A DNA stretch of 64,000 nucleotides from Halarcobacter sp. (GCA_963676565.1 OY781089.1:160001-224000), one strand, 5' to 3'; positions 1 through 12,922 are shown, numbered from the stretch's first letter. Translations and numbers: made by a program. The notes: generated from the letters alone by a model not told the origin.

Positions 1-224
1 ATTGAACGCTTTGATATGTTTTTATAAATAATTTTATATAGTCTATTCATCTCTTTTTTTGCAAATGCAGATGTATTTTCACTGCACATAGCAACAACCG
101 TATTATTTATTTGACCTTCTTCATGAATACAATCATTGTAATTTTTCTCATATTTATTTTTTGTTTCAGCAAATAAAATAAAAGGCATTAATGCAATAAA
201 TAATAGTAAATTTGTGACCTTCAT
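1..224 (-). CDS. Secreted protein, probable lysozyme inhibitor LprI-like (DUF1311); 3' end outside window; cassette gene
   Basis: Not in ORF track. Manual translation from ATG at 224 (RBS AAGGAG): MKVTNLLLFIALMPFILFAETKNKYEKNYNDCIHEEGQINNTVVAMCSENTSAFAKKEMNRLYKIIY. Signal peptide, two Cys and an EMNRLY motif. Confidence 0.6.
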   Translation of the reverse strand, partial: MKVTNLLLFIALMPFILFAETKNKYEKNYNDCIHEEGQINNTVVAMCSENTSAFAKKEMNRLYKIIYKNISKRS

Positions 225-243
225 ATATTACTCCTTTGTATCA

Positions 244-295
244 ATATAACGCCTACCTCAGCCGCTGAAGATCGGCTCAGAGTCTCTTGTTAGCC
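244..295 (-). repeat. Short atypical attC-like site
   Basis: Minus strand GGCTAAC-AAGAG-ACTCTGAGCCG-ATCTTCAG-CGGCTGAGGTAGGC-GTTATAT; only 44 bp from AAC to GTT; followed by the RBS and ATG of the next gene. Confidence 0.6.
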
Positions 296-668
296 ATTTT
301 CTAGTTATTATAGGCAACCATGTAGCCCCTATAGCACACAGCTGAAAATAGGCTAACCGGTACGGGTGAGCCCAGCCACCCGAGTAGCCAACATCAAAAG
401 CCAGCCACACAACAAATGTGGAACTTGAAGCCAAAGCCGCAATCAGCACCCTTTCTGGAAATCTCAGTACAGCAAAACCCTCTAATACCGCCAATATTCC
501 GAACCACGCTGTAAAAAAGCCTAAGGTTAGCCCCCAGGAATACCCACCTCTGTATTCTCTACCTATAGCTTCCGCCACGAAGTGGCCGACTCCATATATC
601 GCGGTCAGAAGAAGCACCCTGATTATTGGCCGTAACAAAAGCAGATAAACTATGCGCTTTGTCATCAC
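258..668 (-). CDS. Hypothetical integral membrane protein (about 4 TM), GC-rich cassette gene
   Basis: 136 aa with four hydrophobic segments; C-terminus reads into the attC-like site; 120 of 240 bases in 361-600 are G/C. Confidence 0.75.
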
Positions 669-736
669 GATTAACCTTTGAAACGCTTAGTTAATAAATC
701 GGAAACTTTCATGTAAATCCTTCTTATAATTTTAGT

Positions 737-805
737 GTATAATGTTTAAAATGAGCCGATAAATTTCCCTCAGGGTAATTTATTGGCTCCTCTGATTTGT
801 TAGAC
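737..805 (-). repeat. attC-like site, family copy 1 (crossover GTT mutated to ATT)
   Basis: 61-bp core 741-801 differs at 5 positions from the copy at 1917-1977; geometry R''-5bp-L''...L'-6bp-R'. Confidence 0.9.
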
Positions 806-808
806 GTT

Positions 809-1693
809 TTATAATTCAAATCTAAATTCTTCTGGATGTTCATCATTAGGATAGTACGCTTTTATTTTGTATACATTTGTTTTGATTACATTTTCATCAA
901 TATTTATTTCTTTGTCTACCAATAATCCAAACAGCCATGGTCTTTCAAATTTTTCAATGTATTCAAATGAAATGAGCTTTCCTTCTTCCGTATCAACTTC
1001 ATTAATATTTATTATATTTGATATTTTAACTAATTCAGTTAGAAAAATTAATACACTTTCATCAATATATAAAGAAGACCCACCAATATCTTTTTTTGAG
1101 CCCATATCATCTAGAATATATGCTTTTGCTAAGGCTGTATTCATTTGAAGTTCTTTAAGATTACTTATTACAATTGGATTACCTGTTCCTTTTGCTATAT
1201 TAGAATAACCACCTTTAGGTCTTGTATAATTTAAAACGAAATCATCAATTCTTGCCTCACTAAAAGTATATTCAGCTTTTTCACCAAATGCAATTACAGT
1301 TCTTGCACCTGGCAAATTATTTGAAATCTCTGATTTCATAATAAATACATGAGACATAATAATATCTCTAAGCCATAGCTCAATACCATGGAGAATATTT
1401 ATAGCTTTATCCATAATATTGTTTTCAATGAAATATGTTTTGATAACTCCATCGTTTAACACAAACATATAACTATTTGATGGAGAAAAATGTCTACTAT
1501 GAATTTTGTAAAATTCATCTAATCTATTAGTGATTTTTAACCAATCTTTTTTAGATAATTTCCAATTTGTTTTTGTAAAATGAGAACCAAATCCTAATAA
1601 GTCAGACCATGCACAAAGATTTAAGGATATTTGAAAACCCTCTTTATTTTGCAGTTTATCTCCTAAAGGACTAGAATACTTATTACTATACAT
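809..1693 (-). CDS. Hypothetical protein with class III nucleotidyl-cyclase-like motifs; cassette gene
   Basis: Ordered motifs WSDLLGFG ... VLNDGV ... GARTVIAFGE ... NTALAKAYILD ... LYIDES resemble the adenylate/guanylate cyclase fold. Confidence 0.55.
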   Translation of the reverse strand: MYSNKYSSPLGDKLQNKEGFQISLNLCAWSDLLGFGSHFTKTNWKLSKKDWLKITNRLDEFYKIHSRHFSPSNSYMFVLNDGVIKTYFIENNIMDKAINILHGIELWLRDIIMSHVFIMKSEISNNLPGARTVIAFGEKAEYTFSEARIDDFVLNYTRPKGGYSNIAKGTGNPIVISNLKELQMNTALAKAYILDDMGSKKDIGGSSLYIDESVLIFLTELVKISNIININEVDTEEGKLISFEYIEKFERPWLFGLLVDKEINIDENVIKTNVYKIKAYYPNDEHPEEFRFEL

Positions 1694-1870
1694 TTATATA
1701 TCAATCTTTTTTCCACTTAACTTGAAGTAAACAAATCCAGCACTCACTAACGCTATTACAAAAATAATTCCTGTTTCTTCTTTTGCTGGGTTACCTACTA
1801 GACTTAAAAGTCCAATAAATAATCCAAAAAATATAACAATACCTATAGTTCGTGCAAAATTTTCTTTCAT
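1694..1870 (-). CDS. Small 2-TM membrane protein (58 aa), abutting the cyclase-like ORF
   Basis: Not in ORF track. RBS AAGGAA, ATG at 1870: MKENFARTIGIVIFFGLFIGLLSLVGNPAKEETGIIFVIALVSAGFVYFKLSGKKIDI*. Stop TAA is directly followed by the ATG at 1693. Confidence 0.75.
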   Translation of the reverse strand: MKENFARTIGIVIFFGLFIGLLSLVGNPAKEETGIIFVIALVSAGFVYFKLSGKKIDI

Positions 1871-1886
1871 TTTATTCCTTCATATG

Positions 1887-1921
1887 ACGTTATCGGGTCG
1901 CCGCAGGCGAGCCGATAACGT
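1887..1921. repeat. GC-rich hairpin (16-bp stem, 1 mismatch, GCA triloop) at an attC crossover point
   Basis: ACGTTATCGGGTCGCC-GCA-GGCGAGCCGATAACGT. Confidence 0.85.
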
Positions 1922-1981
1922 TTAAAATGAGCCGATGAATTGCCCACAGGGTAATTTATTGGCTCCACTGATTTGTTATGT
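1913..1981 (-). repeat. attC-like site, family copy 2 (intact AAC and GTT)
   Basis: Minus strand ACATAAC-AAATC-AGTGGAGCCAATAAATTACCC-TGT-GGGCAATTCATCGGCTCATT-TTAAAC-GTTATCG; the stop codon of the upstream gene lies in R''. Confidence 0.92.
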
Positions 1982-2755
1982 TTTTTTCTTATTTATAATT
2001 AAGTTATAAGCTTGTACTTTATAAAAGTCTAGCATTACTTCTTGCCCCTTTTTGTTTTTATCATTAATTTTCTTTAGTTTTGCAAGCTCATTCGCATTTT
2101 TACCAGTTAATTCAAAAGCTTTTAAATACATAGTTATATTATTAGGGTTCTCTATTCTAAAAGTATTCAAGCTTTTTTTATCTTTATTGTTAATTTTAAT
2201 GCCTACAAATACATGACCACCTTCTTCATTTCCATTTTCATCAATAAAAGACTTACGATGAAAAATATAAGTCTCATACCCAATATAACTCAACAGTGCA
2301 GCTGCAAGAATTGATTGATCTTCGCAATCTCCTAACTTTGTTTTGTAAGTTGCATTTATTGATTTTAAGATATCCTCATTTTTTTCATCTTCTTGGTATT
2401 TAACTTCATAAATCATAAAATCCAATACTTTTTTTAATTTATCCTTTTGAGACATATCGTTTTTAATTCCTATTTCAATTGCAATACTTTTTACATTTTG
2501 GATATTAGAATTTACATAATTTGCATATTCTTTCATTTCAATTTCAGAAAGAATATTTTCTATTTTATTTTTAGAATAATTTTGTAATCCATATTGATAA
2601 AGAATATTTTCTTGTTCTTGTATAGTTTTTGCTTTGTTTAATTTATTTTGAATTGATAAAAAACTATTTTGTTCTTGTATAGTTTCATTATCACCTAATA
2701 CATAAATTATAATTAGTAATAAAACTGCTATTGCTATTAATATGTTTTTTTTCAT
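1976..2755 (-). CDS. Transglutaminase-like (Cys-His-acid) domain protein with N-terminal membrane anchor; cassette gene
   Basis: GDCEDQSILAAALL and GHVFVG motifs; hydrophobic N-terminus. Confidence 0.75.
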   Translation of the reverse strand: MKKNILIAIAVLLLIIIYVLGDNETIQEQNSFLSIQNKLNKAKTIQEQENILYQYGLQNYSKNKIENILSEIEMKEYANYVNSNIQNVKSIAIEIGIKNDMSQKDKLKKVLDFMIYEVKYQEDEKNEDILKSINATYKTKLGDCEDQSILAAALLSYIGYETYIFHRKSFIDENGNEEGGHVFVGIKINNKDKKSLNTFRIENPNNITMYLKAFELTGKNANELAKLKKINDKNKKGQEVMLDFYKVQAYNLIINKKKT

Positions 2756-2800
2756 TTTTAATCTTTCCTCTTAAAAAATAATTGAAACTGCAGACATTAA

Positions 2801-2869
2801 ACATAACGTTTAAAATGAGCCGATGAATTACCCACAGGCTAATTTATTGGCTCCACTGATTTATTATAA
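2801..2869 (-). repeat. attC-like site, family copy 3 (R'' AAC mutated to AAT)
   Basis: 61-bp core 2805-2865 differs at 3 positions from copy 2. Confidence 0.9.
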
Positions 2870-3156
2870 GTTACTGACTTGAAATGTTCTACTATAGGAA
2901 AAGGATCATAAAAATGATGAAGCAGTGTTTTCCATTCTTGATATTTTTCAGAACCTCTAAAACCTTCCGTATGGTCTTCTAATGTCTCCCAATTTACCAG
3001 TAAAATATATTTATTTGGTGTTTCTATGCATTTTTGTAATTGATGTGAAACATACCCTTTCATTTTTGAAATAATGGCTTGTGCTTTTTCAAATGCAATT
3101 TCAAAATCATTTTCTTGACCAATCTTTACATCTAAAACTGCTACTTCTAATATCAC
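2839..3156 (-). CDS. Antibiotic biosynthesis monooxygenase (ABM) family protein; cassette gene
   Basis: MILEVAVLDVK...YILLVNWETLEDHTEGFRGS...LLHHFYDPFP is a typical ABM sequence; the tail YNKSVEPIN is attC-encoded. Confidence 0.85.
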   Translation of the reverse strand: MILEVAVLDVKIGQENDFEIAFEKAQAIISKMKGYVSHQLQKCIETPNKYILLVNWETLEDHTEGFRGSEKYQEWKTLLHHFYDPFPIVEHFKSVTYNKSVEPIN

Positions 3157-3173
3157 TTTATTTCCCCTTTGAT

Positions 3174-3192
3174 TTATAACTCTTTGTTAAAT
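3174..3192 (-). repeat. Collapsed attC / simple integrase core site
   Basis: Minus strand ATTTAAC-AAAGA-GTTATAA between two cassette genes, followed by RBS and GTG. Confidence 0.65.
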
Positions 3193-3500
3193 AACTGATT
3201 GCTACCAATTACTTCATAGACTTTAACTTCTGTATCAGGTTTAATGCGAAATTTTTCGTCTTCTGGATAAAGAACAGCTTTATACAAATTATCACCTGTG
3301 TATCGTTTCATAATATCTAGTTCTTCCCAATGTGATACGAATGTAATTTCAATCTCACCATTTAACTCACGTTTTAGAACATGATACCCTATACACCCGT
3401 CAATATTTTGAGTATCTTTTATACCTGTTTCTGAAAGGTAATTAATAAATCCATTTGCTGTCTCTTTAGGGCAAACACATTTCCATTCTCGATGATACAT
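3174..3500 (-). CDS. ABM-like dimeric alpha/beta barrel protein; cassette gene
   Basis: Probable start ATG 3500 after AAGGAA (MYHREWK); FVSHWEELD...AVLYPED pattern. Confidence 0.65.
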   Translation of the reverse strand: MYHREWKCVCPKETANGFINYLSETGIKDTQNIDGCIGYHVLKRELNGEIEITFVSHWEELDIMKRYTGDNLYKAVLYPEDEKFRIKPDTEVKVYEVIGSNQLFNKEL

Positions 3501-3520
3501 ACTATTCCTTTGCAATTTTT

Positions 3521-3587
3521 ATATAATATTTAAATACACCAATAAAGTGCCGCAGGTACTTTATTAGTGTGCTATGATTTGTTATGT
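3521..3587 (-). repeat. attC-like site, divergent variant (crossover GTT mutated to ATT)
   Basis: Minus strand ACATAAC-AAATC-ATAGCACACTAATAAAGTACC-TGC-GGCACTTTATTGGTGTATTTAAAT-ATTATAT; same AACAAATC end as the family copies. Confidence 0.85.
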
Positions 3588-4303
3588 GCTTCATTTTCGT
3601 TTAAGTTTACTTTGATTATTTCTTCATTATCTTTTCTTTTAATTAATAAAGTTGCAATGGAAAAATTTTTAACACCTCTATACTCTTCAACATTTTTTTC
3701 GCCAAATATAAAATAACCTTCTTCGTCAAGTTTTTTTATTTGGTTATCAAATTCTAAGCCTATATTAATTTTATCTCGAATTTCTAAATCACTACTGATT
3801 TCACCATAATCAATAAATGTTTGTAATGTACTTCCAATATAGTCAGCTTCATCTTTTGAAATTATATTATCGTAATCGACCCTATATCCCATCACATCAG
3901 ATAAGATATTCATTAACTCTTTCCCAGATGAGATTCTTACTAAAAATTTTATTTCTTCTATATTTTTATTGCCATCAAGTTCTTTTTTTAAAGTCTTTTG
4001 TACCCAGTTTTCATGATTTTGTTTCATATATCTTAATATTTCTTCTGGAAAAGAATCTATTAAAGTATCAATTTCTTTGTGATGATTTCTACATAATAAA
4101 ATCAAGTTATCAAATGTATCATAATCATTTAAATTTGGCTTATGTCTTGGTCCTTTTGATTTGCTACTTATAATATGACATTCTTCACCAATATTTAGGT
4201 TACTATCTGTTTCTTGTTCTGTAATTAGTTCGATTTTACAGATAGCACATCTATTACCTGATTTTGCCCAAAGCATTTTTCTAGTTTTTTCTGATATTGC
4301 CAA
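3572..4303 (-). CDS. HNH endonuclease domain protein with unknown C-terminal domain; first cassette
   Basis: LWAKSGNRCAIC...EECHII...GPR...NLILLCRNHHKEID; probable TTG start at 4303 after AGGAA, inside the cassette boundary at 4341. Confidence 0.85.
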   Translation of the reverse strand: MAISEKTRKMLWAKSGNRCAICKIELITEQETDSNLNIGEECHIISSKSKGPRHKPNLNDYDTFDNLILLCRNHHKEIDTLIDSFPEEILRYMKQNHENWVQKTLKKELDGNKNIEEIKFLVRISSGKELMNILSDVMGYRVDYDNIISKDEADYIGSTLQTFIDYGEISSDLEIRDKINIGLEFDNQIKKLDEEGYFIFGEKNVEEYRGVKNFSIATLLIKRKDNEEIIKVNLNENEAHNKS

Positions 4304-4333
4304 TCTACTAATTCCTATTTTATTTTTAAATCT

Positions 4334-4364
4334 CACATAACTATCTATTGAATACCCATTATAT
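4334..4364 (-). promoter_or_regulatory. attI-like site with upstream -10 box (candidate cassette promoter)
   Basis: Minus strand TATAAT-GGGT-ATTCAAT-AGATA-G/TTATGTG: a 7-5-7 simple site with no hairpin; second TATAAT at 4397-4392. Confidence 0.6.
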
Positions 4365-4456
4365 AAATAAAGCACTTAAATCCACTTATTTATTATATAT
4401 TCTTAAAAGAGCATATTTTAGGTATAGCTTCTAAAATGTTGGATTTTTAGAGAATC

Positions 4457-4577
4457 GAAAATTCATATTTTTATTAAAATCAAGGCAAAGAGAATTTTTC
4501 ATGAAGGAGTTTACTGTAGTAAATGACTGATTAAAGAATTTTATTTAACGAAGATTCTGATAAAAAGATGGATTTTC
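4457..4577. repeat. 121-bp nested palindromic element (MITE/REP-like or structured RNA)
   Basis: 25-bp terminal inverted repeats (21/25 match), a weaker inner inverted repeat and an apical TTTAC-TGTA-GTAAA hairpin. Confidence 0.7.
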
Positions 4578-5099
4578 CCTCATCATACATTTTAATATCT
4601 CATAAGTTTTACTAACATCATATGTAGCACTATGATAAGATTCTTGGTCAAAATCTATATTATAAAAAATACAAGTCTCATCTAGTTTTGGATTTTTTAT
4701 TCTCCCATTTTTATTTAAAGCTTTTACAATATGCTTATTCTCTTTCATAGTACAAATATGATTTTCAAAGGAAGCCAAGCCTTCGACTCTTGCAAGCTCA
4801 AAACTTATATTGTGAGCAACTAAAGTTTTTGCATCTTCACAAAATTTTACAAAGTCCTCATCCTCTTTAAAATATGAGGCATATTTTTCTTCACTTTTAT
4901 TTCTATGTTCAAGTATTAATTCAGGGGTTAATCTATGAACTTGAAAGGCGTAATAATTAACTGGATATCTTGAAAGATAATATCTATGAAATTTGTCTAC
5001 AACTTTTAACTCATTATTTTGTATTTGAACTTTAACTGCAGCTGCTTCTATAACGTCATGTGGGTTTAAAGTATTTGTTTCGAAGTCTAATATAATCAT
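4545..5099 (-). CDS. DEDDh 3'-5' exonuclease (DnaQ-like)
   Basis: ILDFET, VAHNISFE and HSATYDV motifs; probable start ATG 5099. Confidence 0.85.
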   Translation of the reverse strand: MIILDFETNTLNPHDVIEAAAVKVQIQNNELKVVDKFHRYYLSRYPVNYYAFQVHRLTPELILEHRNKSEEKYASYFKEDEDFVKFCEDAKTLVAHNISFELARVEGLASFENHICTMKENKHIVKALNKNGRIKNPKLDETCIFYNIDFDQESYHSATYDVSKTYEILKCMMRENPSFYQNLR

Positions 5100-5301
5100 A
5101 GTGCAATTATATTCAATAAAATGTAAATAATATGTAAGAAAATAAGCACTTTCCACAAATTTTTAAAGAGTTTTAGAATTATTCAAAAAAAAATGGATTT
5201 TTCCTTTCAATTTTATTTATTTTTTGATTTTTTTTCATAATACTTAGTTATAAAATGTGCCTGACTAGCATATATGGTTAAACAAAAAATAAAAAAGGAC
5301 A

Positions 5302-5811
5302 ATGATGTATTACCAAACTGCAGACTTATGTGATTTGAATCAAGATAAAAAAATTCAAGTATTATCCCCCAACTTTAAATCTTTTGGAGGGAAAAAAGGT
5401 TTTCAAGGAAGGGTCATAACTATAAAACTTGATAAAAGTAATTGGGATTTAATTGATATTTTAAAAAATGAAGATGGAACAGGAAAAGTTGTTGCTATTG
5501 ATGTTGATGAAGCTTATTATGGAGTTGTGGGTGATAAACTATCAGCATTTGCAGCAAAAAACAACTTTGTAGCTATGATTATAAATGGATATGTTAGAGA
5601 TACTAGAGAAACTGTTAAATTTGATATTGGTTTATTTGCTTTAGGAACTTGCCCACTTAGAAATTTTGAAAAAACAAAAGGTATTAGAGATATTGAGCTA
5701 AACTTTGGTGGAGTAACTTTCAATAATGGAGATTATGTTTATGCAGATGAAGATGGAGTAATAGTTTCATCTATCGAGCTTGACACAAGTGATGCCCCTA
5801 TAATCTCTTAA
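5302..5811 (+). CDS. rraA: RraA family / HMG aldolase-like protein
   Basis: TADLCD, GYVRD and GDYVYADEDGVIV motifs. Confidence 0.85.
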   Translation: MMYYQTADLCDLNQDKKIQVLSPNFKSFGGKKGFQGRVITIKLDKSNWDLIDILKNEDGTGKVVAIDVDEAYYGVVGDKLSAFAAKNNFVAMIINGYVRDTRETVKFDIGLFALGTCPLRNFEKTKGIRDIELNFGGVTFNNGDYVYADEDGVIVSSIELDTSDAPIIS

Positions 5812-5893
5812 TACATTAAAAAATTATTCAAGTTTTTCTTATTAAATATAAAAAATTTAAGTATAATTCGAAAAAATTTAATAGGATAAAAAC

Positions 5894-6691
5894 TTGGATA
5901 AAATTAAATCCCTTGTAGAAGCAAAAAAGTTTCAAAACTTTATTATTGTACTTATCATTTTAAATGGTATCTCAATGGGTCTAGAAACCTCAAAATCAGT
6001 TATGTCAAGCTATGGTAGCATACTTCATGCTTTTGATGTGTTTGTGATTTCTGTCTTTACTATAGAGGTAACTCTTAGAATAATTGCCCATAGATTATCT
6101 TTTTTCAAAGACCCATGGTCTTTATTTGATTTCTTTGTTGTGATTATCTCACTAATTCCATCAAGTGGAAGTTTCTCCGTTCTAAGAATCTTAAGAGTTC
6201 TAAGACTTTTTAGACTTATTACAGTAGTTCCACAAATGAGAAAAATTGTTGCTGCACTAATAAGTGTTATTCCTGGAATGATTTCTATTATTGGACTTAT
6301 GAGTTTAATATTTTATGTTTTTGCTATCATGGCTACATCTTTATATGCAGAAACTTTTCCCCAATGGTTTGGAACTCTTGGAGAATCATTTTATACCCTA
6401 TTCCAAATTATGACTTTAGAATCTTGGTCGATGGGAATTGTAAGACCTATAATGGAGCAACACCCACTAGCTTGGGTCTTTTTTATTCCATTTATATTTG
6501 TGGCAACTTTTATTATGATTAACCTTGTTGTTGCAATAATTGTAGATGCAATGAGTATAATAAAAGAAGAAGAGATTGAAAAGATAGAAGAAGTAAAAAC
6601 TTCTGAAAGTGAATTGAAAACTGAAATCAAATCTTTACAAGAAGAGATTAAAGAGTTAAAACATCTAATTATAAAATCAAATAGAAAGTAA
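5894..6691 (+). CDS. Bacterial voltage-gated sodium channel (NavAb-like)
   Basis: S4 [12 protein letters not shown], selectivity filter TLESWSM, 6 TM segments, C-terminal coiled coil. Confidence 0.95.
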
Positions 6692-6712
6692 ACCCTAATT
6701 AGGGTTTACTTT
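6685..6712. terminator. Perfect 28-bp palindrome over two convergent stop codons (bidirectional terminator candidate)
   Basis: AAAGTAAACCCTAA/TTAGGGTTTACTTT. Confidence 0.65.
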
Positions 6713-7489
6713 TTTTATTAGTGATGGAGTATACCCAGAATATCTTCTAAAAACTTTTATCATGTATGATTGGTCAGAGAAACCACACTCATAGGCTATA
6801 TCAGACAAAGACATATCAGTTTTTAAAAGTTCTCTTACTTTATTAACTTTTTTTATTTGAATAAAATGGGAAGGGGAAATACCAAAGTTTCTTTTAAACT
6901 CCCTAGAAAAATGGAACCTTGACAAACCTGCATTTTTTGATAAATCATCCAATGAAATATTTAGATCCTTTATATTTGCATCTATAAAATCTATTGTTGA
7001 AGAAAAACTTTTTGTAGTTTTTTTATCTTCAATTATTTGATTCTCTTTAATTGTTGAATGGTATTTTAATATATAATCTAAAAAATCAAATATTGCATTA
7101 TCAACGGCTAAATCATTTGTCCCTTTAGTTTCAAAAGTTTCAAACATAGTGATAAACAGATACGAAGCTTTTTCATCATCTATCAAACTGTTAAAATGAA
7201 TCGTTTCTAAACTATCCTTTTTAAGTATATCTTTTGCGATAGAGTTAACCAAAGAAACAGTTGGCATAATATTTAGATGAGACCATGTACTATTATTTGT
7301 TGTGTGTATCTCATATGGGTTTACTACTTGAATTATTCCAGGCACTATTTTATGCTTTTCTTTTTCATTTGCAAAAAAGTGTGCACCTTCATATACTAAA
7401 CTAATAGTATACTCTTCATGAAAATGCTTAGTTAAAGTAACATTTTTAAAATTGTTGTTAACATAAAATATATCGCTCATATTTTTCAA
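6695..7489 (-). CDS. AraC family transcriptional regulator
   Basis: N-terminal cupin HFHEEY; C-terminal SRFHFSREFKRNFGISP and IAYECGFSDQSY. Confidence 0.92.
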   Translation of the reverse strand: MKNMSDIFYVNNNFKNVTLTKHFHEEYTISLVYEGAHFFANEKEKHKIVPGIIQVVNPYEIHTTNNSTWSHLNIMPTVSLVNSIAKDILKKDSLETIHFNSLIDDEKASYLFITMFETFETKGTNDLAVDNAIFDFLDYILKYHSTIKENQIIEDKKTTKSFSSTIDFIDANIKDLNISLDDLSKNAGLSRFHFSREFKRNFGISPSHFIQIKKVNKVRELLKTDMSLSDIAYECGFSDQSYMIKVFRRYSGYTPSLIKKVNPN

Positions 7490-8055
7490 TTTTCTTTTAA
7501 AACTCTTTTTGAAGTATCATAAACAAACTCATAATAGTTGTTATTGTTAAACTCGAACTCTTGAATAACTTCAAGTCCCATTTTTCTTTTGTGAGCTTCG
7601 TATGATCTTGGATTAATTTTATTTACAAAGGTAACTAATATCTCATATTTTTTTGACATTTCATCTAAAGCAAAATCAAATAGTTTTTCTAAAAGTCCAC
7701 TACCTCTATATCTTTTATCTATACAAACAGGTCCATATTGGTATGAATTATCTATAGTGATTTGTTTTCCAAGATATTGTAAATTTGGTAAATCTTTTAT
7801 CATAAATGCAAACATTGGCCATTTTGACCAATACTGCCACGATGCAGACATAACATACCCAACAACTTCACCATTATCAACTGCTACAAAAATACCTTTT
7901 TCTTTTTCTATAATATCTTCTAATTGTTCTTTTGAAAAAGCTGTTGTAACAAAACCATCTTTTTTATCTTCTTCATCTATTGTATCAACTTGATATTTAC
8001 TATGTAGTTTTAAAATATTTTCTACATCTTCAAAACTTGCTATTTTTAAAACCAT
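7486..8055 (-). CDS. GNAT family acetyltransferase
   Basis: VCIDKRYRGSGL acetyl-CoA motif; NPRSYEAH. Confidence 0.85.
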   Translation of the reverse strand: MVLKIASFEDVENILKLHSKYQVDTIDEEDKKDGFVTTAFSKEQLEDIIEKEKGIFVAVDNGEVVGYVMSASWQYWSKWPMFAFMIKDLPNLQYLGKQITIDNSYQYGPVCIDKRYRGSGLLEKLFDFALDEMSKKYEILVTFVNKINPRSYEAHKRKMGLEVIQEFEFNNNNYYEFVYDTSKRVLKEN

Positions 8056-8115
8056 GCATACTCCTTAAAACAGAGATTATAGTAGTTTCTATATTATTTG
8101 TATAGTAAAATATTG

Positions 8116-9123
8116 CTATATATTTTTTCTAACTACTTTTATATCTTTAATATCCATATCTAAATAGCAAGAAGATGAGTCTTCTAATCCTTCAATAGAA
8201 AAAGTTTTTACTATGATTTCACTTTTTTCATAATCATCTAAAATTATATTTAATTCAAAGAAATCGCCACAATAAGAGATATCAAGAATTGTCCCTTTTA
8301 TCTTAGATTTATCATCTACAATTTTTACTTTATCAATTGGAATAATTCCAACATAATCTTTAGGAACACTACAAGCAATCTTTTCCACTAAAGGTTTAGG
8401 TAATTTATTTATTCTATTTAAAAAATTAGCTATATAAAAAGATTTTGGATTTTCAAATAACTGCTTTGGTGTTCCAAATTGCTCTATCTTTTTGTTATTT
8501 ATAATTGCAATTTTATCTGACATACTAAGTGCTTCTTTTTGATCATGGGTAACAAGAATAGCACTTAAACCCAACTCTTTAATAAGTTTTTTTAACCAAA
8601 TTTTTGTTTTATATCTTAATAAAGTATCTAGATTTGCAAAGGGTTCATCAAGGAGTAAAACCTTAGGTTCATAGGCTAAAACTCTAGCTATTGAAACACG
8701 CTGTTGTTGACCACCACTTAATTCATGAATTTGTTTATGTCTATGCTCAACTAAATCAAACTGCTTTAGAAGATTATCAACCCTTCTTTGTCTTTCATTT
8801 GCTTTTAATCTATATAGGGCAAACTCAATATTTTGTCTAACATTTAAGTGAGGGAATAAAGCATAATCTTGAAATATATAACCTAAATCTTTGTGACACT
8901 CTCTTTTTCCATTTTGAATTAAACAGTGTTCATTAATAAAAATTTCACCGTCATATTGTTCTTGTAGCGATGCAATACTTCTTAAAATAGTACTTTTACC
9001 ACATCCACTAGGACCCAAAATTGTTACAATCTCTCCTTGTTTTACACTAAAAGAGATATCTTCTAAAATTTGTGTTTGTCCAAAAGCAATAGAGTAATTT
9101 TTTACACTTATACCTGTAATCAT
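8116..9123 (-). CDS. fbpC: Fe(III) ABC transporter ATP-binding protein
   Basis: GPSGCGKST, LSGGQQQR, LLLDEPF; operon context. Confidence 0.85.
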   Translation of the reverse strand: MITGISVKNYSIAFGQTQILEDISFSVKQGEIVTILGPSGCGKSTILRSIASLQEQYDGEIFINEHCLIQNGKRECHKDLGYIFQDYALFPHLNVRQNIEFALYRLKANERQRRVDNLLKQFDLVEHRHKQIHELSGGQQQRVSIARVLAYEPKVLLLDEPFANLDTLLRYKTKIWLKKLIKELGLSAILVTHDQKEALSMSDKIAIINNKKIEQFGTPKQLFENPKSFYIANFLNRINKLPKPLVEKIACSVPKDYVGIIPIDKVKIVDDKSKIKGTILDISYCGDFFELNIILDDYEKSEIIVKTFSIEGLEDSSSCYLDMDIKDIKVVRKNI

Positions 9124-9130
9124 TATATTA

Positions 9131-9160
9131 ATCCTTTAAAATGTCCCATTTTAAAGGGAC
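9131..9160 (-). promoter_or_regulatory. Shine-Dalgarno-pairing hairpin motif, copy 1
   Basis: mRNA GUCCCUUUAAAAUGGGACAUUUUAAAGGAU ending 7 nt before AUG; related copy at 48541-48570. Confidence 0.55.
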
Positions 9161-9178
9161 AATAATTGTCTTAATGTC

Positions 9179-10759
9179 TTAATCTTTTACCATCTTTTTT
9201 GCAAGTATTAAAACTGATACCATACTAAATAATACAATAAACATAGCAGGAACTGCTGATTCTATAATCTGCGCTTGAGTTACAAGTTCATGGGATAACA
9301 CAGGTAAAGTATCAAAGTTAAATGGTCTTAATATCATAGTTAAAGGCAACTCTTTTAAAGTTTCTATAAATATCACAATAAAACTTGCCATTATTGACCC
9401 TCTAAGTAGAGGAAAAATCACTTTTAAAAAAGTATAAAAACCATCGACATTCATAGTCTTACATGCATCATCATAACTTTGAGGTATCTTACTAAAACCT
9501 GATTCATAATTATTAATTGAGATAGCTATAAATCTAACTAAATAACCAAACACAACAGCTATAACAGTTCCACTAATCAAAATATCAAAGTTCTTATCAA
9601 TAAATGAAAAGAAGCTTAACACCCCAATTGCAACAACTGCTCCAGGGATTGAATACCCTAGTTTAGAAATTTGCACAAGATTATCAGCTATTTTACTTTT
9701 ATGCACTCTTACATTATAAACAATAAAAAATGCCAATATAGTTATTAAAATAGAACTTGTTATACCAAGGGCTAGGGTTTGATAAAGTATTGTTAAAAAA
9801 TCCTCATCAATAATCTCTTCATATGAAATATAAAACCAATAAGACATTTGAGAAAAAGGTAATAAAAATCCAAAGAAAAAAGGGATAAAACATGCAAGCC
9901 ATGCAAAAAAACCTTTTACTCCTGTAAGTTTTTGTTTTATAATTGGTTTAAAATCCTTACCACTACTTTTATATTTTTTATTTCTTCTTTGAAATCTTTC
10001 CAAGAAGATTATAATAAAAATAAAAAGCATCAACATAGAAGCCAATTTTGAAGCATCTTCAACACTTCCCATACCAAGCCATGTTCTAAAAATACCTGTT
10101 ACAAAAGTTGATACCCCATAATAATCCATAACCCCATAATCAGCAACAGCTTCCATCACTGCTAATATGCTTCCTGCAACAATTGCAGGTCTTGAAATTG
10201 GTAAAATTACCTTATAAAATATCTGAAAATTACTAAGTCCCATAGTCTTAGAAGCATCAAGAATAGAGCTTGATTCAGCTTTTAAGTATGTTTTAGAGAT
10301 TAGATACACATAAGGGTACAAAACCAAAGACATTACAATAATAGCACCCTCTATTGACATAATATCAAAGAAATAAACTTCATTTAAACTCTTACCTAAT
10401 AAATCCAATATAAATGTAGTAACTGAGCCTGTAATATCAAACATACCACCATAAATATATGACATAATATATGTAGGGATTGCAAAGGGTAAAATCAAAC
10501 CATAGTGGAAAAATCTTGAACCAGAAAATTCAAAAAATGTAGTTATATAAGCTGTTGTAAAACCTAAAAGAATAGTTAATATTGCAACTCCAAACATAAT
10601 ATATAAAGAGTTATAAATATATTCAAATAAAACTGTATCAACTAAATGTGACCAATTATCACTAGTTACAAAAATATTTGAAATTAGTATAAGTCCTGGT
10701 ATAGAGATAAGAAGTGTTAAAAGAACACTACTTATTGTAAGCTTATTTAAAATTTTCAA
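9179..10759 (-). CDS. fbpB: Fe(III) ABC transporter permease
   Basis: 526 aa with two permease repeats; LPFAIPTY and KELPLTMILRPFNFDTL motifs. Confidence 0.9.
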   Translation of the reverse strand: MKILNKLTISSVLLTLLISIPGLILISNIFVTSDNWSHLVDTVLFEYIYNSLYIMFGVAILTILLGFTTAYITTFFEFSGSRFFHYGLILPFAIPTYIMSYIYGGMFDITGSVTTFILDLLGKSLNEVYFFDIMSIEGAIIVMSLVLYPYVYLISKTYLKAESSSILDASKTMGLSNFQIFYKVILPISRPAIVAGSILAVMEAVADYGVMDYYGVSTFVTGIFRTWLGMGSVEDASKLASMLMLFIFIIIFLERFQRRNKKYKSSGKDFKPIIKQKLTGVKGFFAWLACFIPFFFGFLLPFSQMSYWFYISYEEIIDEDFLTILYQTLALGITSSILITILAFFIVYNVRVHKSKIADNLVQISKLGYSIPGAVVAIGVLSFFSFIDKNFDILISGTVIAVVFGYLVRFIAISINNYESGFSKIPQSYDDACKTMNVDGFYTFLKVIFPLLRGSIMASFIVIFIETLKELPLTMILRPFNFDTLPVLSHELVTQAQIIESAVPAMFIVLFSMVSVLILAKKMVKD

Positions 10760-10765
10760 TTTCTC

Positions 10766-11767
10766 TTATTTCCATCCTGATTTATCAAATATTTTAACTG
10801 CATTAATATTATATTTTCCCATAGTATTTATTGAGATATTATCATCTTCAAACGTCCCCCATGAAGAAACCACATCATTTTTCTTAACACCCTTTGCAAC
10901 AGGATATTCAAAGTTCCCATTTGCAAATAAATCTTGTGCCTCAGGACTTAATAAAAACTCTATAAATTTAATAGCATTTTCTTTATTAGGAGAATATTTT
11001 GCAACTCCTGCACCACTTACGTTTATGTGTGTTCCACCATTCTCAAATTTAGGAAATATAATCTTTACTTTTTTAACTGCTTCACTTTCAGCAATATCTT
11101 TATTACCAATCATTTTACCAACATAATAAGTATTTGCAATAGCAATTTTTCCAATTCCATTTGCTACAGCTTTTACTTGATATCTATCATTTCCTCTAGG
11201 TCGTCTTGCCATATTCTTTACAACGCCTTTTGCCCATTTTAAAGCGTACTCTTCACCATGGTGAGCAATAACAGCGGCAAGCATTGATTGATTGTAAACA
11301 TGGTTTGATGATCTAACCATAATCATTTTTTTATACTCTGGTTTTATTAAATCTTCATAGGTTTTAATCTCAATATTACTATCAATTGGAACAATAAAGG
11401 CTCTTACTCTTTTTGTCAATGCAAACCATTTATTATCTTCATCCCTTAGATTTTCAGGAACAACTTCCATTAGATATTTTGATTCAATTGATTGAATTAA
11501 GCCTTTTGATTTTGCTTGATAAAGTCTTCCTGCATCAACAGTGATTAAAACATCTGCTGGTGACTTTTCACCTTCACTTTCTAATCTTTTAATTAAAGCA
11601 TTAGCATCTGCATTTACAACATTTACTTTAATACCTGTTTTTTCCTCAAACATTTTATATAATTGTTTATCTGTATCATAATGTCTGTGAGAATATACAT
11701 TTACTTCATTTGAAGCAAAAACAAAATTTGTAAAAATAAAAAAACTTAATAATATTTGTTTAATCAT
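10766..11767 (-). CDS. fbpA: Fe(III) ABC transporter substrate-binding protein, paralog 2
   Basis: VNVYSHRHY, ADVLITVDAGRL and ANTYY motifs (FutA/CfbpA type). Confidence 0.9.
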   Translation of the reverse strand: MIKQILLSFFIFTNFVFASNEVNVYSHRHYDTDKQLYKMFEEKTGIKVNVVNADANALIKRLESEGEKSPADVLITVDAGRLYQAKSKGLIQSIESKYLMEVVPENLRDEDNKWFALTKRVRAFIVPIDSNIEIKTYEDLIKPEYKKMIMVRSSNHVYNQSMLAAVIAHHGEEYALKWAKGVVKNMARRPRGNDRYQVKAVANGIGKIAIANTYYVGKMIGNKDIAESEAVKKVKIIFPKFENGGTHINVSGAGVAKYSPNKENAIKFIEFLLSPEAQDLFANGNFEYPVAKGVKKNDVVSSWGTFEDDNISINTMGKYNINAVKIFDKSGWK

Positions 11768-11820
11768 ATTTGTACCTTTTTAAAATATAGATTATATCAT
11801 TTATGAAGTAAAACATTTCT

Positions 11821-11839
11821 TATAGTAATAATTGTTATC
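11821..11839. promoter_or_regulatory. Fur box candidate
   Basis: TATAGTAATAATTGTTATC, 14/19 match to GATAATGATAATCATTATC, upstream of iron ABC genes. Confidence 0.55.
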
Positions 11840-11856
11840 AAAATGATAATAAGAGA

Positions 11857-11891
11857 TAAAAAAAGGGAGTAGCAAAAACTATTCCCTTTCT
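11857..11891 (-). terminator. Intrinsic terminator between the two binding-protein genes
   Basis: Minus strand AAAGGGAATAG-TTTTTG-CTACTCCC followed by a T run. Confidence 0.7.
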
Positions 11892-11914
11892 TCTTTGTTA
11901 AATATTAGATTGTA

Positions 11915-12922
11915 TTATTTCCAACCAGCTTTATCAAACACTTTTACTGCTGCTGCATTGTTTTTCCCAAGCTCATTAATTGAAATTGTGTCATCTTCAA
12001 ATTCACCCCAAGATTCAACTATAGGATTTTTCTTTACACCATCAATAACTGGATATTCAAAGTTCCCTCCAGCAAATAATTCTTGTGCATCTTTGCTTGC
12101 TAAAAACTCAATAAATTTAATTGCATTTTCTTTATTAGGAGAATATTTTGCAACCCCTGCACCACTTACATTTATATGTGTTCCACCATTTTCAAATTTA
12201 GGAAAGAAAATCTTAACTTTTTTTACAGCTTTAGCTTGTGATTCATCTTTATTATCAACCATTTTACCAATATAATAAGTGTTTGCAATTGCAATTTCAC
12301 CAATACCATTTGCAATAGCTTTTACTTGATATCTGTCATTACCTTTTGGAGCCATTGCCATATTTGCAACTACACCTTTAGCCCAGTTTAAAGCATATTC
12401 TTCACCATGGTGAGCAATCATACCTGCTAATAATGATTGGTTATATGTATTATTTGAAGATCTAACCATGATTTTACCCTTAAATTTTGGGTCTGCTAAA
12501 TCTTCATAAGTAGATAATTCTTTTTCTATTCCTGATCCTAATTTATAAACTGTAACTCTTGCTCTTTTAGTTAAACCAAACCATTGGTTATCTTTATCTC
12601 TTAATTTTTGAGGAATTGAATTTATTAATTTTTCAGACTCAATTGCTTGAAAAAGACCTTTTTCTTTTGCTGTATATAATCTTGCAGCATCTACAGTGAT
12701 TAAAACATCAGCTGGTGATTTTTCACCTTCAGATTCAAGTCTTTGAACTAAAGCAGAACCTTTTGCTTTTACAACATTTACTTTTATACCTGTTTTTTCT
12801 TCAAACATTTTAAACAATATTTTATCTGTGTCATAATGTCTTGTTGAGTAAATATTAACCTCATTTGCAGCATAAATTGAACTTGTCAATAATAATGCAC
12901 CTAAAAATAATTTTTTTAGCAT
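11915..12922 (-). CDS. fbpA: Fe(III) ABC transporter substrate-binding protein, paralog 1
   Basis: Same motifs as paralog 2; start ATG 12922 after AAGGAA (MLKKLF signal peptide). Confidence 0.9.
   Translation of the reverse strand: MLKKLFLGALLLTSSIYAANEVNIYSTRHYDTDKILFKMFEEKTGIKVNVVKAKGSALVQRLESEGEKSPADVLITVDAARLYTAKEKGLFQAIESEKLINSIPQKLRDKDNQWFGLTKRARVTVYKLGSGIEKELSTYEDLADPKFKGKIMVRSSNNTYNQSLLAGMIAHHGEEYALNWAKGVVANMAMAPKGNDRYQVKAIANGIGEIAIANTYYIGKMVDNKDESQAKAVKKVKIFFPKFENGGTHINVSGAGVAKYSPNKENAIKFIEFLASKDAQELFAGGNFEYPVIDGVKKNPIVESWGEFEDDTISINELGKNNAAAVKVFDKAGWK

Follow-up and report, generated by a model that had tools for sequence, protein, structure and literature searches.

The 64,000-nt stretch of Halarcobacter sp. 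DNA analysed here (GCA_963676565.1 OY781089.1:160001-224000; hereafter the window, corresponding to C1:160001-224000 of the genome called G000) begins with what are, in all likelihood, the remains of a chromosomal integron. As read from its sequence, this element would extend from 205 nt before the first base of the window to position 4436. It would represent a cluster of attC sites lacking an integron integrase (CALIN) that has kept its attI site and lost its integrase. Its layout comprises attI, a probable cassette promoter and six minus-strand gene cassettes. An attC of a single AT-rich family closes four of these cassettes, and a G+C-rich attC-like site closes a fifth. An orphaned cassette array of the IntI type is supported by the presence of the same attC type beside IntI in relatives, by the R'/R'' signature, by breakpoints at the crossover nucleotide and by the lack of IntI. 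The genome is a single contig of 3,340,668 bp (28.4% G+C, 99.97% complete). An initial annotation, made from the sequence of the window, had proposed co-oriented cassettes in an array run by a distant integrase or orphaned; the association of attC with IntI in relatives and the absence of IntI from the genome bear out an orphaned array.

Three 61-bp palindromes are found at positions 741-801, 1917-1977 and 2805-2865, where the initial annotation had placed them. As it had counted, copy 2 differs from copy 1 at 5 positions and from copy 3 at 3 positions. A covariance model, R1, was built from an alignment of 51 distinct members of the attC family, three from the window and 48 from relatives. 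Across the 64 kb, R1 matches four sites alone, all on the plus strand: attC1 (733-809, 90 bits), attC2 (1909-1985, 95.6 bits), attC3 (2797-2873, 86.1 bits) and attC4 (3517-3591, 48.3 bits, E 3e-8). The crossover is located at 1918|1919 in attC2. In attC1, the crossover triplet is mutated to AAT, with AA|T at 742|743, and in attC3, R'' is mutated to ATTA. attC4 is divergent but has the architecture of attC1-3. Its triplet is AAT (3526|3527); its counterpart in the relative G086 retains AAC. One more attC-like site, with 51% G+C, is observed on the plus strand at 244-295. Its outer boxes TATAAC (245-250) and GTTAGCC (289-295) are correctly placed, with AA|C at 249|250, and it lies in a block that is 98% identical in another relative, G087. 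This site is a plausible candidate attC, which probably arrived together with a foreign cassette.

In the alignment of the 51 sites, AAC and GTT are near-invariant. The predicted fold has paired outer boxes, a 5-nt bulge on either side of a 4-bp AAAT/ATTT helix, a 17-bp stem and a 3-nt loop. The two strands are not equivalent. Among the 1274 pair cells of the alignment, 98.4% can pair on the plus strand versus 90.2% on the minus strand, with 112 G.T versus 8 A.C. The plus strand also gives the better predicted fold for all three 61-mers of the window. Relative to the cassette open reading frames (ORFs), this is the bottom strand, and integron integrases recombine the bottom strand of attC. The initial annotation had described a single unpaired C in L''. 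In the fold, this region forms a 5-nt C(A/T)CTG bulge of which the C is at best the first base.

Alternatively, the palindromes could be ordinary intergenic repeats, akin to repetitive extragenic palindromes (REP) or miniature inverted-repeat transposable elements (MITE), or terminators, with a coincidental likeness to an integron. They are indeed hairpins at gene 3' ends, single extrahelical bases are not evident in them, and an Rfam scan of positions 1-12000, with E up to 1, gave no match. Against this idea, a search of the whole genome tolerating at most 14 substitutions found the three copies of the window and one degenerate copy (2607224-2607284). Just four clustered copies in 3.34 Mb argue for a local array rather than a dispersed repeat. 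A terminator scan shows no T-tract behind the palindromes. The position of the 61-mer in relatives, always co-oriented with intI and adjoining it, also speaks against repeats or terminators, as described below.

The comparison covered 184 genomes of the family (22 genera, one genome per species, some of them drafts). The 61-mer is present in 79 of these genomes and in 14 of the 22 genera, at up to 98% identity. An exact attC 30-mer also occurs in Sulfurimonas, Sulfurovum and Sulfurospirillum records, at odds with the lineage-specific system that had been proposed at first. As a criterion for the integrase we used the TIGR02249 profile with a cut-off of 265 bits; typical IntI proteins score near 400. 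IntI exceeds the cut-off in 44 genomes; in four of these, every such copy has internal stops. When the two lists are read against each other, 25 genomes have both the 61-mer and IntI, leaving 54 of the 79 carriers of the 61-mer, some of them drafts, without an IntI over the cut-off. The 61-mer lies within about 9 kb of intI in nine genomes and beside intI fragments in nine more. In all 18, intI keeps to one side and one strand with respect to the 61-mer, in the canonical divergent layout where intI reads away from the cassettes. Six integrase-linked loci of relatives were extracted and the 61-mer was located there with blastn; the layout was verified in loci L057-L061. In G088 (a genome of the same genus), G045, G046 and G159 (L057-L060), R1 identifies 5-9 co-oriented attC sites leading up to intI. 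The IntI of G088 scores 395 bits, and the intact proteins of relatives score 395-409 bits.

No such integrase was found in the complete G000 genome, where the best TIGR02249 score is 50.4 bits. A tblastn search with the G088 IntI returned at best a generic recombinase with 24% identity, and IntI is absent from the window and from the 20 kb upstream of it. The lack of a neighbouring integrase, noted in the initial annotation, is thus confirmed and extends to the whole genome. That annotation had also considered an intI just beyond base 1. This place is occupied by the remainder of an LprI-like ORF, followed by cysS and nusA, and the orientation in relatives would place the integrase to the right of 4341. 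There, no remnant of intI is found beside the attI-like site at 4341-4436, and the locus does not qualify as a complete integron.

The attI-like site had been overlooked at first, although the end assigned to the array, position 4341, falls at the attI junction (crossover 4340|4341). Conservation begins abruptly at TAAC|TATTTATTG, and positions 4339-4436 are 86% identical to the stretch that separates the first cassette from intI in G088. Among 14 distinct attI-like copies from various genomes, conservation ends exactly at TAAC|, and the sequences leftward are all different. In G088, G045, G096 and G130, fewer than 300 nt separate the attI-like sequence from the intI that lies downstream of it. 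It is found at 45 places in 28 of the 184 genomes, with up to 4 per genome, and 8 of the 45 are beside an intI gene or fragment. G000 has three. A perfect TATAAT on the minus strand (4363-4358), directed into the cassettes, suggests a cassette promoter. The sigma-70 scan yielded 33 promoter-like sites for 34.5 expected. Because the DNA is AT-rich, the sigma-70 and terminator scans are uninformative, so that the attI promoter is one that we infer.

Complementarity between the start of a cassette and its own R'' across the G|TT crossover is the expected trace of a circular intermediate. Once a cassette is integrated, the variable portion of R' is part of the cassette that follows, and the right flank of an attC should therefore complement the left flank of its neighbour. 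We scored this complementarity beyond the TAAC/GTTA core for 45 model-found attC sites from eight arrays, with a threshold of at least 3 variable nt. It is observed in 28 of 37 adjacent pairs versus 178 of 1943 non-adjacent pairs. In the window, GTTATGTTT (1975-1983) is complementary to AAACATAAC (2799-2807) over 9 bp, and GTTATGTG (3581-3588) to CACATAAC (4334-4341) over 8 bp, in agreement with the 8-9 bp start/end complementarity initially reported for two cassettes. Flanks shared out in this way between neighbours are difficult to reconcile with ordinary repeats.

Comparison of the cassette content at this locus, a check that the initial annotation had called for, shows that G086 and G106 differ from G000. 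In G086, the left flank is 91.6% identical (up to 204 nt before base 1), and the sequence from attC4 rightward, including a cassette with an HNH nuclease gene, is 88% identical. In between, a 770-nt MNT/HepT-like cassette stands in place of 3.7 kb of G000, and the break is located at AA|C of attC4. This cassette (11769-12429 of locus L069) encodes an MNT nucleotidyltransferase and HepT-like pair, with the HepT part split into two short ORFs. In G106, one unrelated cassette lies between the shared flanks, followed by the attI-like site. G087 shares the region from 73 nt before base 1 to position 683 at 97.6% identity, although core genes are about 75% identical; the break falls at AA| of attC1. 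In the two nearest species, the platform is kept at the corresponding locus. A 3,496-nt contig of sequencing run X7 follows positions 3529-4633 with one difference and is then unlike the window. These breakpoints at AA|C add to the evidence against intergenic repeats or terminators. As far as sequence can tell, that explanation is refuted, and we give it next to no probability.

Runs X2, X7 and X8, labelled as other organisms and as wastewater metagenome, also contain contigs that match parts of several cassettes and the attI junction almost letter for letter. Run X6 is letter-identical and comes from the same study as the full holder of the sequence; it is hence not independent. In the X2 and X8 contigs, positions 871-1914 and 2089-2784 are almost uncovered, with no bridging contig, so this gives no evidence of cassette absence. 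X7 joints whose sides measure 20-42 nt fall in attC repeats; we made no use of them.

Several points weigh against an IntI-assembled array. The second divergent palindrome of the initial annotation, at 244-295, fares less well than attC4: R1 does not match it and its fold is no better than that of shuffled sequences (z -0.26). No attC is recognisable behind cassette 6, only a 23-nt hairpin. In the bottom strand as predicted, the 17-bp stem is free of single extrahelical bases and the 9-nt spacers carry two 5-nt bulges, a geometry that may differ from that of canonical attC sites. R1 is specific to one attC family and circular for its 51 training sites. In the window itself, clear complementarity is seen at just one of three adjacent attC pairs and at the attI junction, the others being degraded. 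G000 and G086 share the attI-proximal cassette and differ distally, the opposite of a simple attI-insertion pattern. Finally, G000, G086 and G106 have different cassettes at this locus, yet none has an intI there. Either the changes predate the loss of intI, or something acted in trans.

Another possibility is that the cassette differences between G000, G086 and G106 arose independently of IntI, by homologous recombination or transformation through the repeats and flanks, or by another tyrosine recombinase. Besides the missing intI, the 61-mers would provide long, near-identical repeats for such events, and G087 shares a block of three cassettes in the same order at 98% identity, which fits block transfer. 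On the other hand, the breaks fall at the crossover nucleotide rather than at arbitrary points within the repeats. In addition, an intI pseudogene with an attI-like site of its own occurs elsewhere in G106, and an integrase was therefore present in the recent past. We consider an origin of these differences without IntI unlikely, while keeping it in mind.

We favour a model in which IntI inserted and excised cassettes by recombining the folded bottom strand of attC (the plus strand of the window) with attI or another attC at AA|C. The integrase gene to the right of attI would then have been lost. With no other copy in the genome, the array would be frozen in the G000 strain. Any later cassette changes at this locus, devoid of integrase, would be due to an integrase acting in trans or to homologous recombination. 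The order of these events is one that we infer.

It appears very improbable that the array is still active and relies in trans on an integrase encoded at another place in the cell. Such service is conceivable, as IntI acts in trans on matching sites. The three attI-like sites of G000, and the 37 of 45 attI-like places of the family without adjacent intI, would also fit a remote supply. Nonetheless, the single-contig, 99.97% complete genome has no IntI (50 versus 265 bits, and nothing by tblastn), and three of the eight crossover triplets of the window are mutated (attC1 AAT, attC3 ATT, attC4 AAT). Across the arrays without intact intI, 8 of 32 triplets are mutated, versus 0 of 58 in the four arrays with intact intI (Fisher p 1.4e-4, for groups that were defined post hoc and are related). 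Other marks of decay are a cassette stump at 683-742, a hairpin at 1887-1921 and the last cassette, which has no attC. The orphaned array thus looks frozen and decaying in G000.

All ORFs in positions 1-4375 are on the minus strand, and an attC or attC-like site lies behind five of the six cassettes. Among the five ORFs followed by such a site, four have their stop codon in R'' or read through it (1976-1978, 2839-2841, 3572-3574 and 258-260). The initial annotation had extended this to the array as a whole; the ORF at 809-1693 stops 4 nt short of R''. Cassette 1 (3527-4340) carries the HNH nuclease ORF (3572-4303). Its start is likely TTG 4303 or ATG 4276, as the GTG at 4375 chosen by the ORF tool would fall inside attI. 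The N-terminal region of about 110 residues matches models of CBASS/SAVED-HNH effector nucleases (102 bits) and the C-terminal half has no match. From this similarity, the protein may be a defence-type nuclease. The same cassette is found in G086 and in a contig of run X7. PADLOC matched two of eight proteins, the HNH protein and the flanking DEDDh exonuclease; the other five cassette ORFs tested were unmatched. None of eight window proteins exceeded a curated NCBIfam cut-off.

Cassette 2 (2807-3526) contains two ORFs (2839-3156 and 3174-3515) with an ABM fold (antibiotic biosynthesis monooxygenase-like). Cassette 3 (1919-2806, 888 nt) encodes a 259-residue transglutaminase-like protein (1976-2755; Transglut_core, 28.6 bits) with an N-terminal hydrophobic segment, and its stop codon is within R''. 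Cassette 4 (genes at 809-1870) carries a 294-residue ORF (809-1693) and a 58-residue membrane ORF (1694-1870), neither with a family match. The hairpin at 1887-1921 is G+C-rich and perfect (-18.7 kcal/mol, z -8.3) and overlaps the AAC of attC2. Its ends, GTTATCGG and CCGATAAC, fit the cassette start/end rule, and it also adjoins an attC in G089. A G+C-rich cassette, empty or degraded, has probably left this hairpin behind.

The stump at 683-742 consists of the 5' untranslated region and first codons of a small minus-strand ORF that is whole in G087. The G087 version has 244 nt more and a degenerate attC; runs X2 and X8 keep a different, smaller part. Cassette 5 encodes a hydrophobic protein of 136 residues (258-668) that belongs to no named family and reads through R''. 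Four homologous proteins, none of them named, were found among 5.8 billion clusters. The ORF has 48% G+C versus 28% for the genome. Together with the 51% G+C of the attC-like site at 244-295, this points to cassettes coming from outside the 28% G+C lineage. Cassette 6 is the last one and abuts the cysS stop codon. It contains a 133-residue LprI-like (DUF1311) ORF (Pfam LprI, 35.6 bits), whose 5' part covers positions 1-224 and which continues to 177 nt before base 1. Cassette 6 is missing from G086 and G106, where flank homology stops 204 and 212 nt before base 1, respectively.

On the other side of the array, similarity to integrase-proximal sequence ends beyond 4436. A DEDDh exonuclease gene (4545-5156) and then an RraA-like gene follow. 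About 120 nt of this region (4458-4576, the 3' end of the exonuclease gene and the spacer) have matches of about 80% at several unrelated places in genomes of the genus, and one partial extra copy in G000 (490049-490109). We also considered that the attI-like repeat could be a cassette-borne element. This was dropped, because the copies in G104 and G087 show integrase deletions. In G104, one attI-like copy leads into the intI leader and first codons, which are joined to the 3' half of an attC; this indicates integrase deletions between neighbouring platforms. In G087, what comes after the attI-like copy is the upstream region of intI and then MITE-like repeats. G104 also has three attI-like copies about 2 kb apart in one gene row (2549-6637 of L169). 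Structured, MITE-like repeats of about 600 nt occupy the place of intI, between the attI-like site and the next genes, in G087 (10400-11340 of L071) and in G106 (11960-12360 of L070).

G000 has a second orphan array at 2,607,216-2,610,185 (7216-10185 of L015), with attC matches of 50.5, 31.2 and 39 bits and an attI-like site adjoining guaA. Among its cassette products are a 281-residue class D beta-lactamase-like protein (Pfam Transpeptidase, 132.7 bits) and another LprI-like protein. The third attI-like site of the genome (2,657,948-2,659,122; 2948-4122 of L072) adjoins radA and one DUF5677 ORF, with no attC match and no intI.

The exact attC 30-mer was found in 94 stretches of a collection of species-representative genomes. 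Among the 80 of these that were listed, on contigs of 3-29 kb, 33 are labelled as Arcobacter group, 19 as Sulfurimonadaceae, 4 as Sulfurospirillaceae, 3 as Sulfurovum, 2 as Helicobacter(aceae), 15 as unspecified Campylobacterota and 4 as other. The records thus span at least four named families. The attC is also carried by three large plasmids, and no copy was found in the phage collection. The 161-kb Aliarcobacter cryaerophilus plasmid NZ_MK715471.1 (132076-146140; L167) has an attC of 93.8 bits in a co-oriented gene row. Genes of this row are annotated as TIR-domain, phospholipase D-like and DUF4365 proteins, and the annotation of the stretch includes no integron integrase. Five IntI proteins share 82-93% identity, in a pattern that does not follow genus.

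The attC type is almost invariant across Campylobacterota, and orphan attI platforms outnumber integrase-linked ones. The 30-mer, plasmid, IntI and attI data support, but do not prove, one horizontally circulating type whose platforms usually outlive the integrase. We put forward only tentatively, and with more doubt than conviction, that this type forms an integron class of its own, in horizontal circulation across the whole of Campylobacterota and defined by its near-invariant attC, unusual geometry and intI-free platforms. In such a class, strand choice may be set by G.T wobbles rather than by single extrahelical bases, and attI/promoter platforms may persist and multiply without intI. If so, most arrays would be operon-like stores, occasionally served by an integrase from a minority of strains. 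The pattern could be relevant to the sharing of cassette pools among aquatic and wastewater bacteria.

Vibrio-type sedentary chromosomal integrons have homogeneous attC repeats (the Vibrio cholerae repeats, VCR), with tens to hundreds of sites. The array described here resembles them by its near-identical attC sites, its cassettes of unknown function and, in a relative, a toxin-antitoxin cassette. It differs from them by its five sites, by an attC type that spans genera and families instead of being species-specific, and by IntI identities that do not follow genus. According to Cury et al., sedentary chromosomal integrons are recognised by more than 19 attC sites or by presence in all genomes of a species (PMC4889954). 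With five attC sites, the likeness to such integrons drawn in the initial annotation fails on size.

The integrase-linked arrays of G088, G045, G046 and G159 share with the window array the 61-nt attC family, at 87-98% identity, and the layout, and G088 and G045 also share the attI type. They differ from it by their intact intI, 5-9 attC sites, crossover triplets that are all intact (0 of 58 mutated) and regular flank complementarity.

CALINs are described as a common class of attC clusters without integron integrase, with on average about 5-6 attC sites, in Cury et al. 2016 (PMC4889954) and Neron et al. 2022 (PMC9024848). Like the CALINs described there, the window array has at least two attC sites (4-5 here), its cassettes share an orientation and are for the most part of unknown function, and neither intI nor an intI pseudogene lies nearby. 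It departs from them in that it is headed by a retained attI-like site. In addition, the attC sites closely resemble one another, whereas the 2016 paper reports particularly low attC similarity in CALINs (PMC4889954). In IntegronFinder 2.0, Tables S1 and S3 have entries for complete integrons and for CALINs from named Arcobacter, Halarcobacter, Malaciobacter and Aliarcobacter genomes (PMC9024848), and CALIN and In0 elements are tabulated for Sulfurovum and Sulfurimonas (PMC10295459, Table 1). The types listed by IntegronFinder, complete integrons with 5 attC sites and CALINs with 2-6, are shared with those found here; in these tables, the elements are rows without description of attC type, attI or cassette content. 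Beyond such tables and resistome surveys, our search of the literature, which covered sources outside subscription journals, gave no description of these chromosomal integrons of Arcobacter, Arcobacteraceae or Campylobacterota. Given the CALIN class and the elements listed for the Arcobacter group, we file the window array as one more element of a known type. Taken alone, another orphan array in a family already covered by automated surveys has little weight. It is nevertheless a clean case, in which comparisons are enough to read attI, the crossover nucleotide, the strand that folds and the decay after the integrase was lost.

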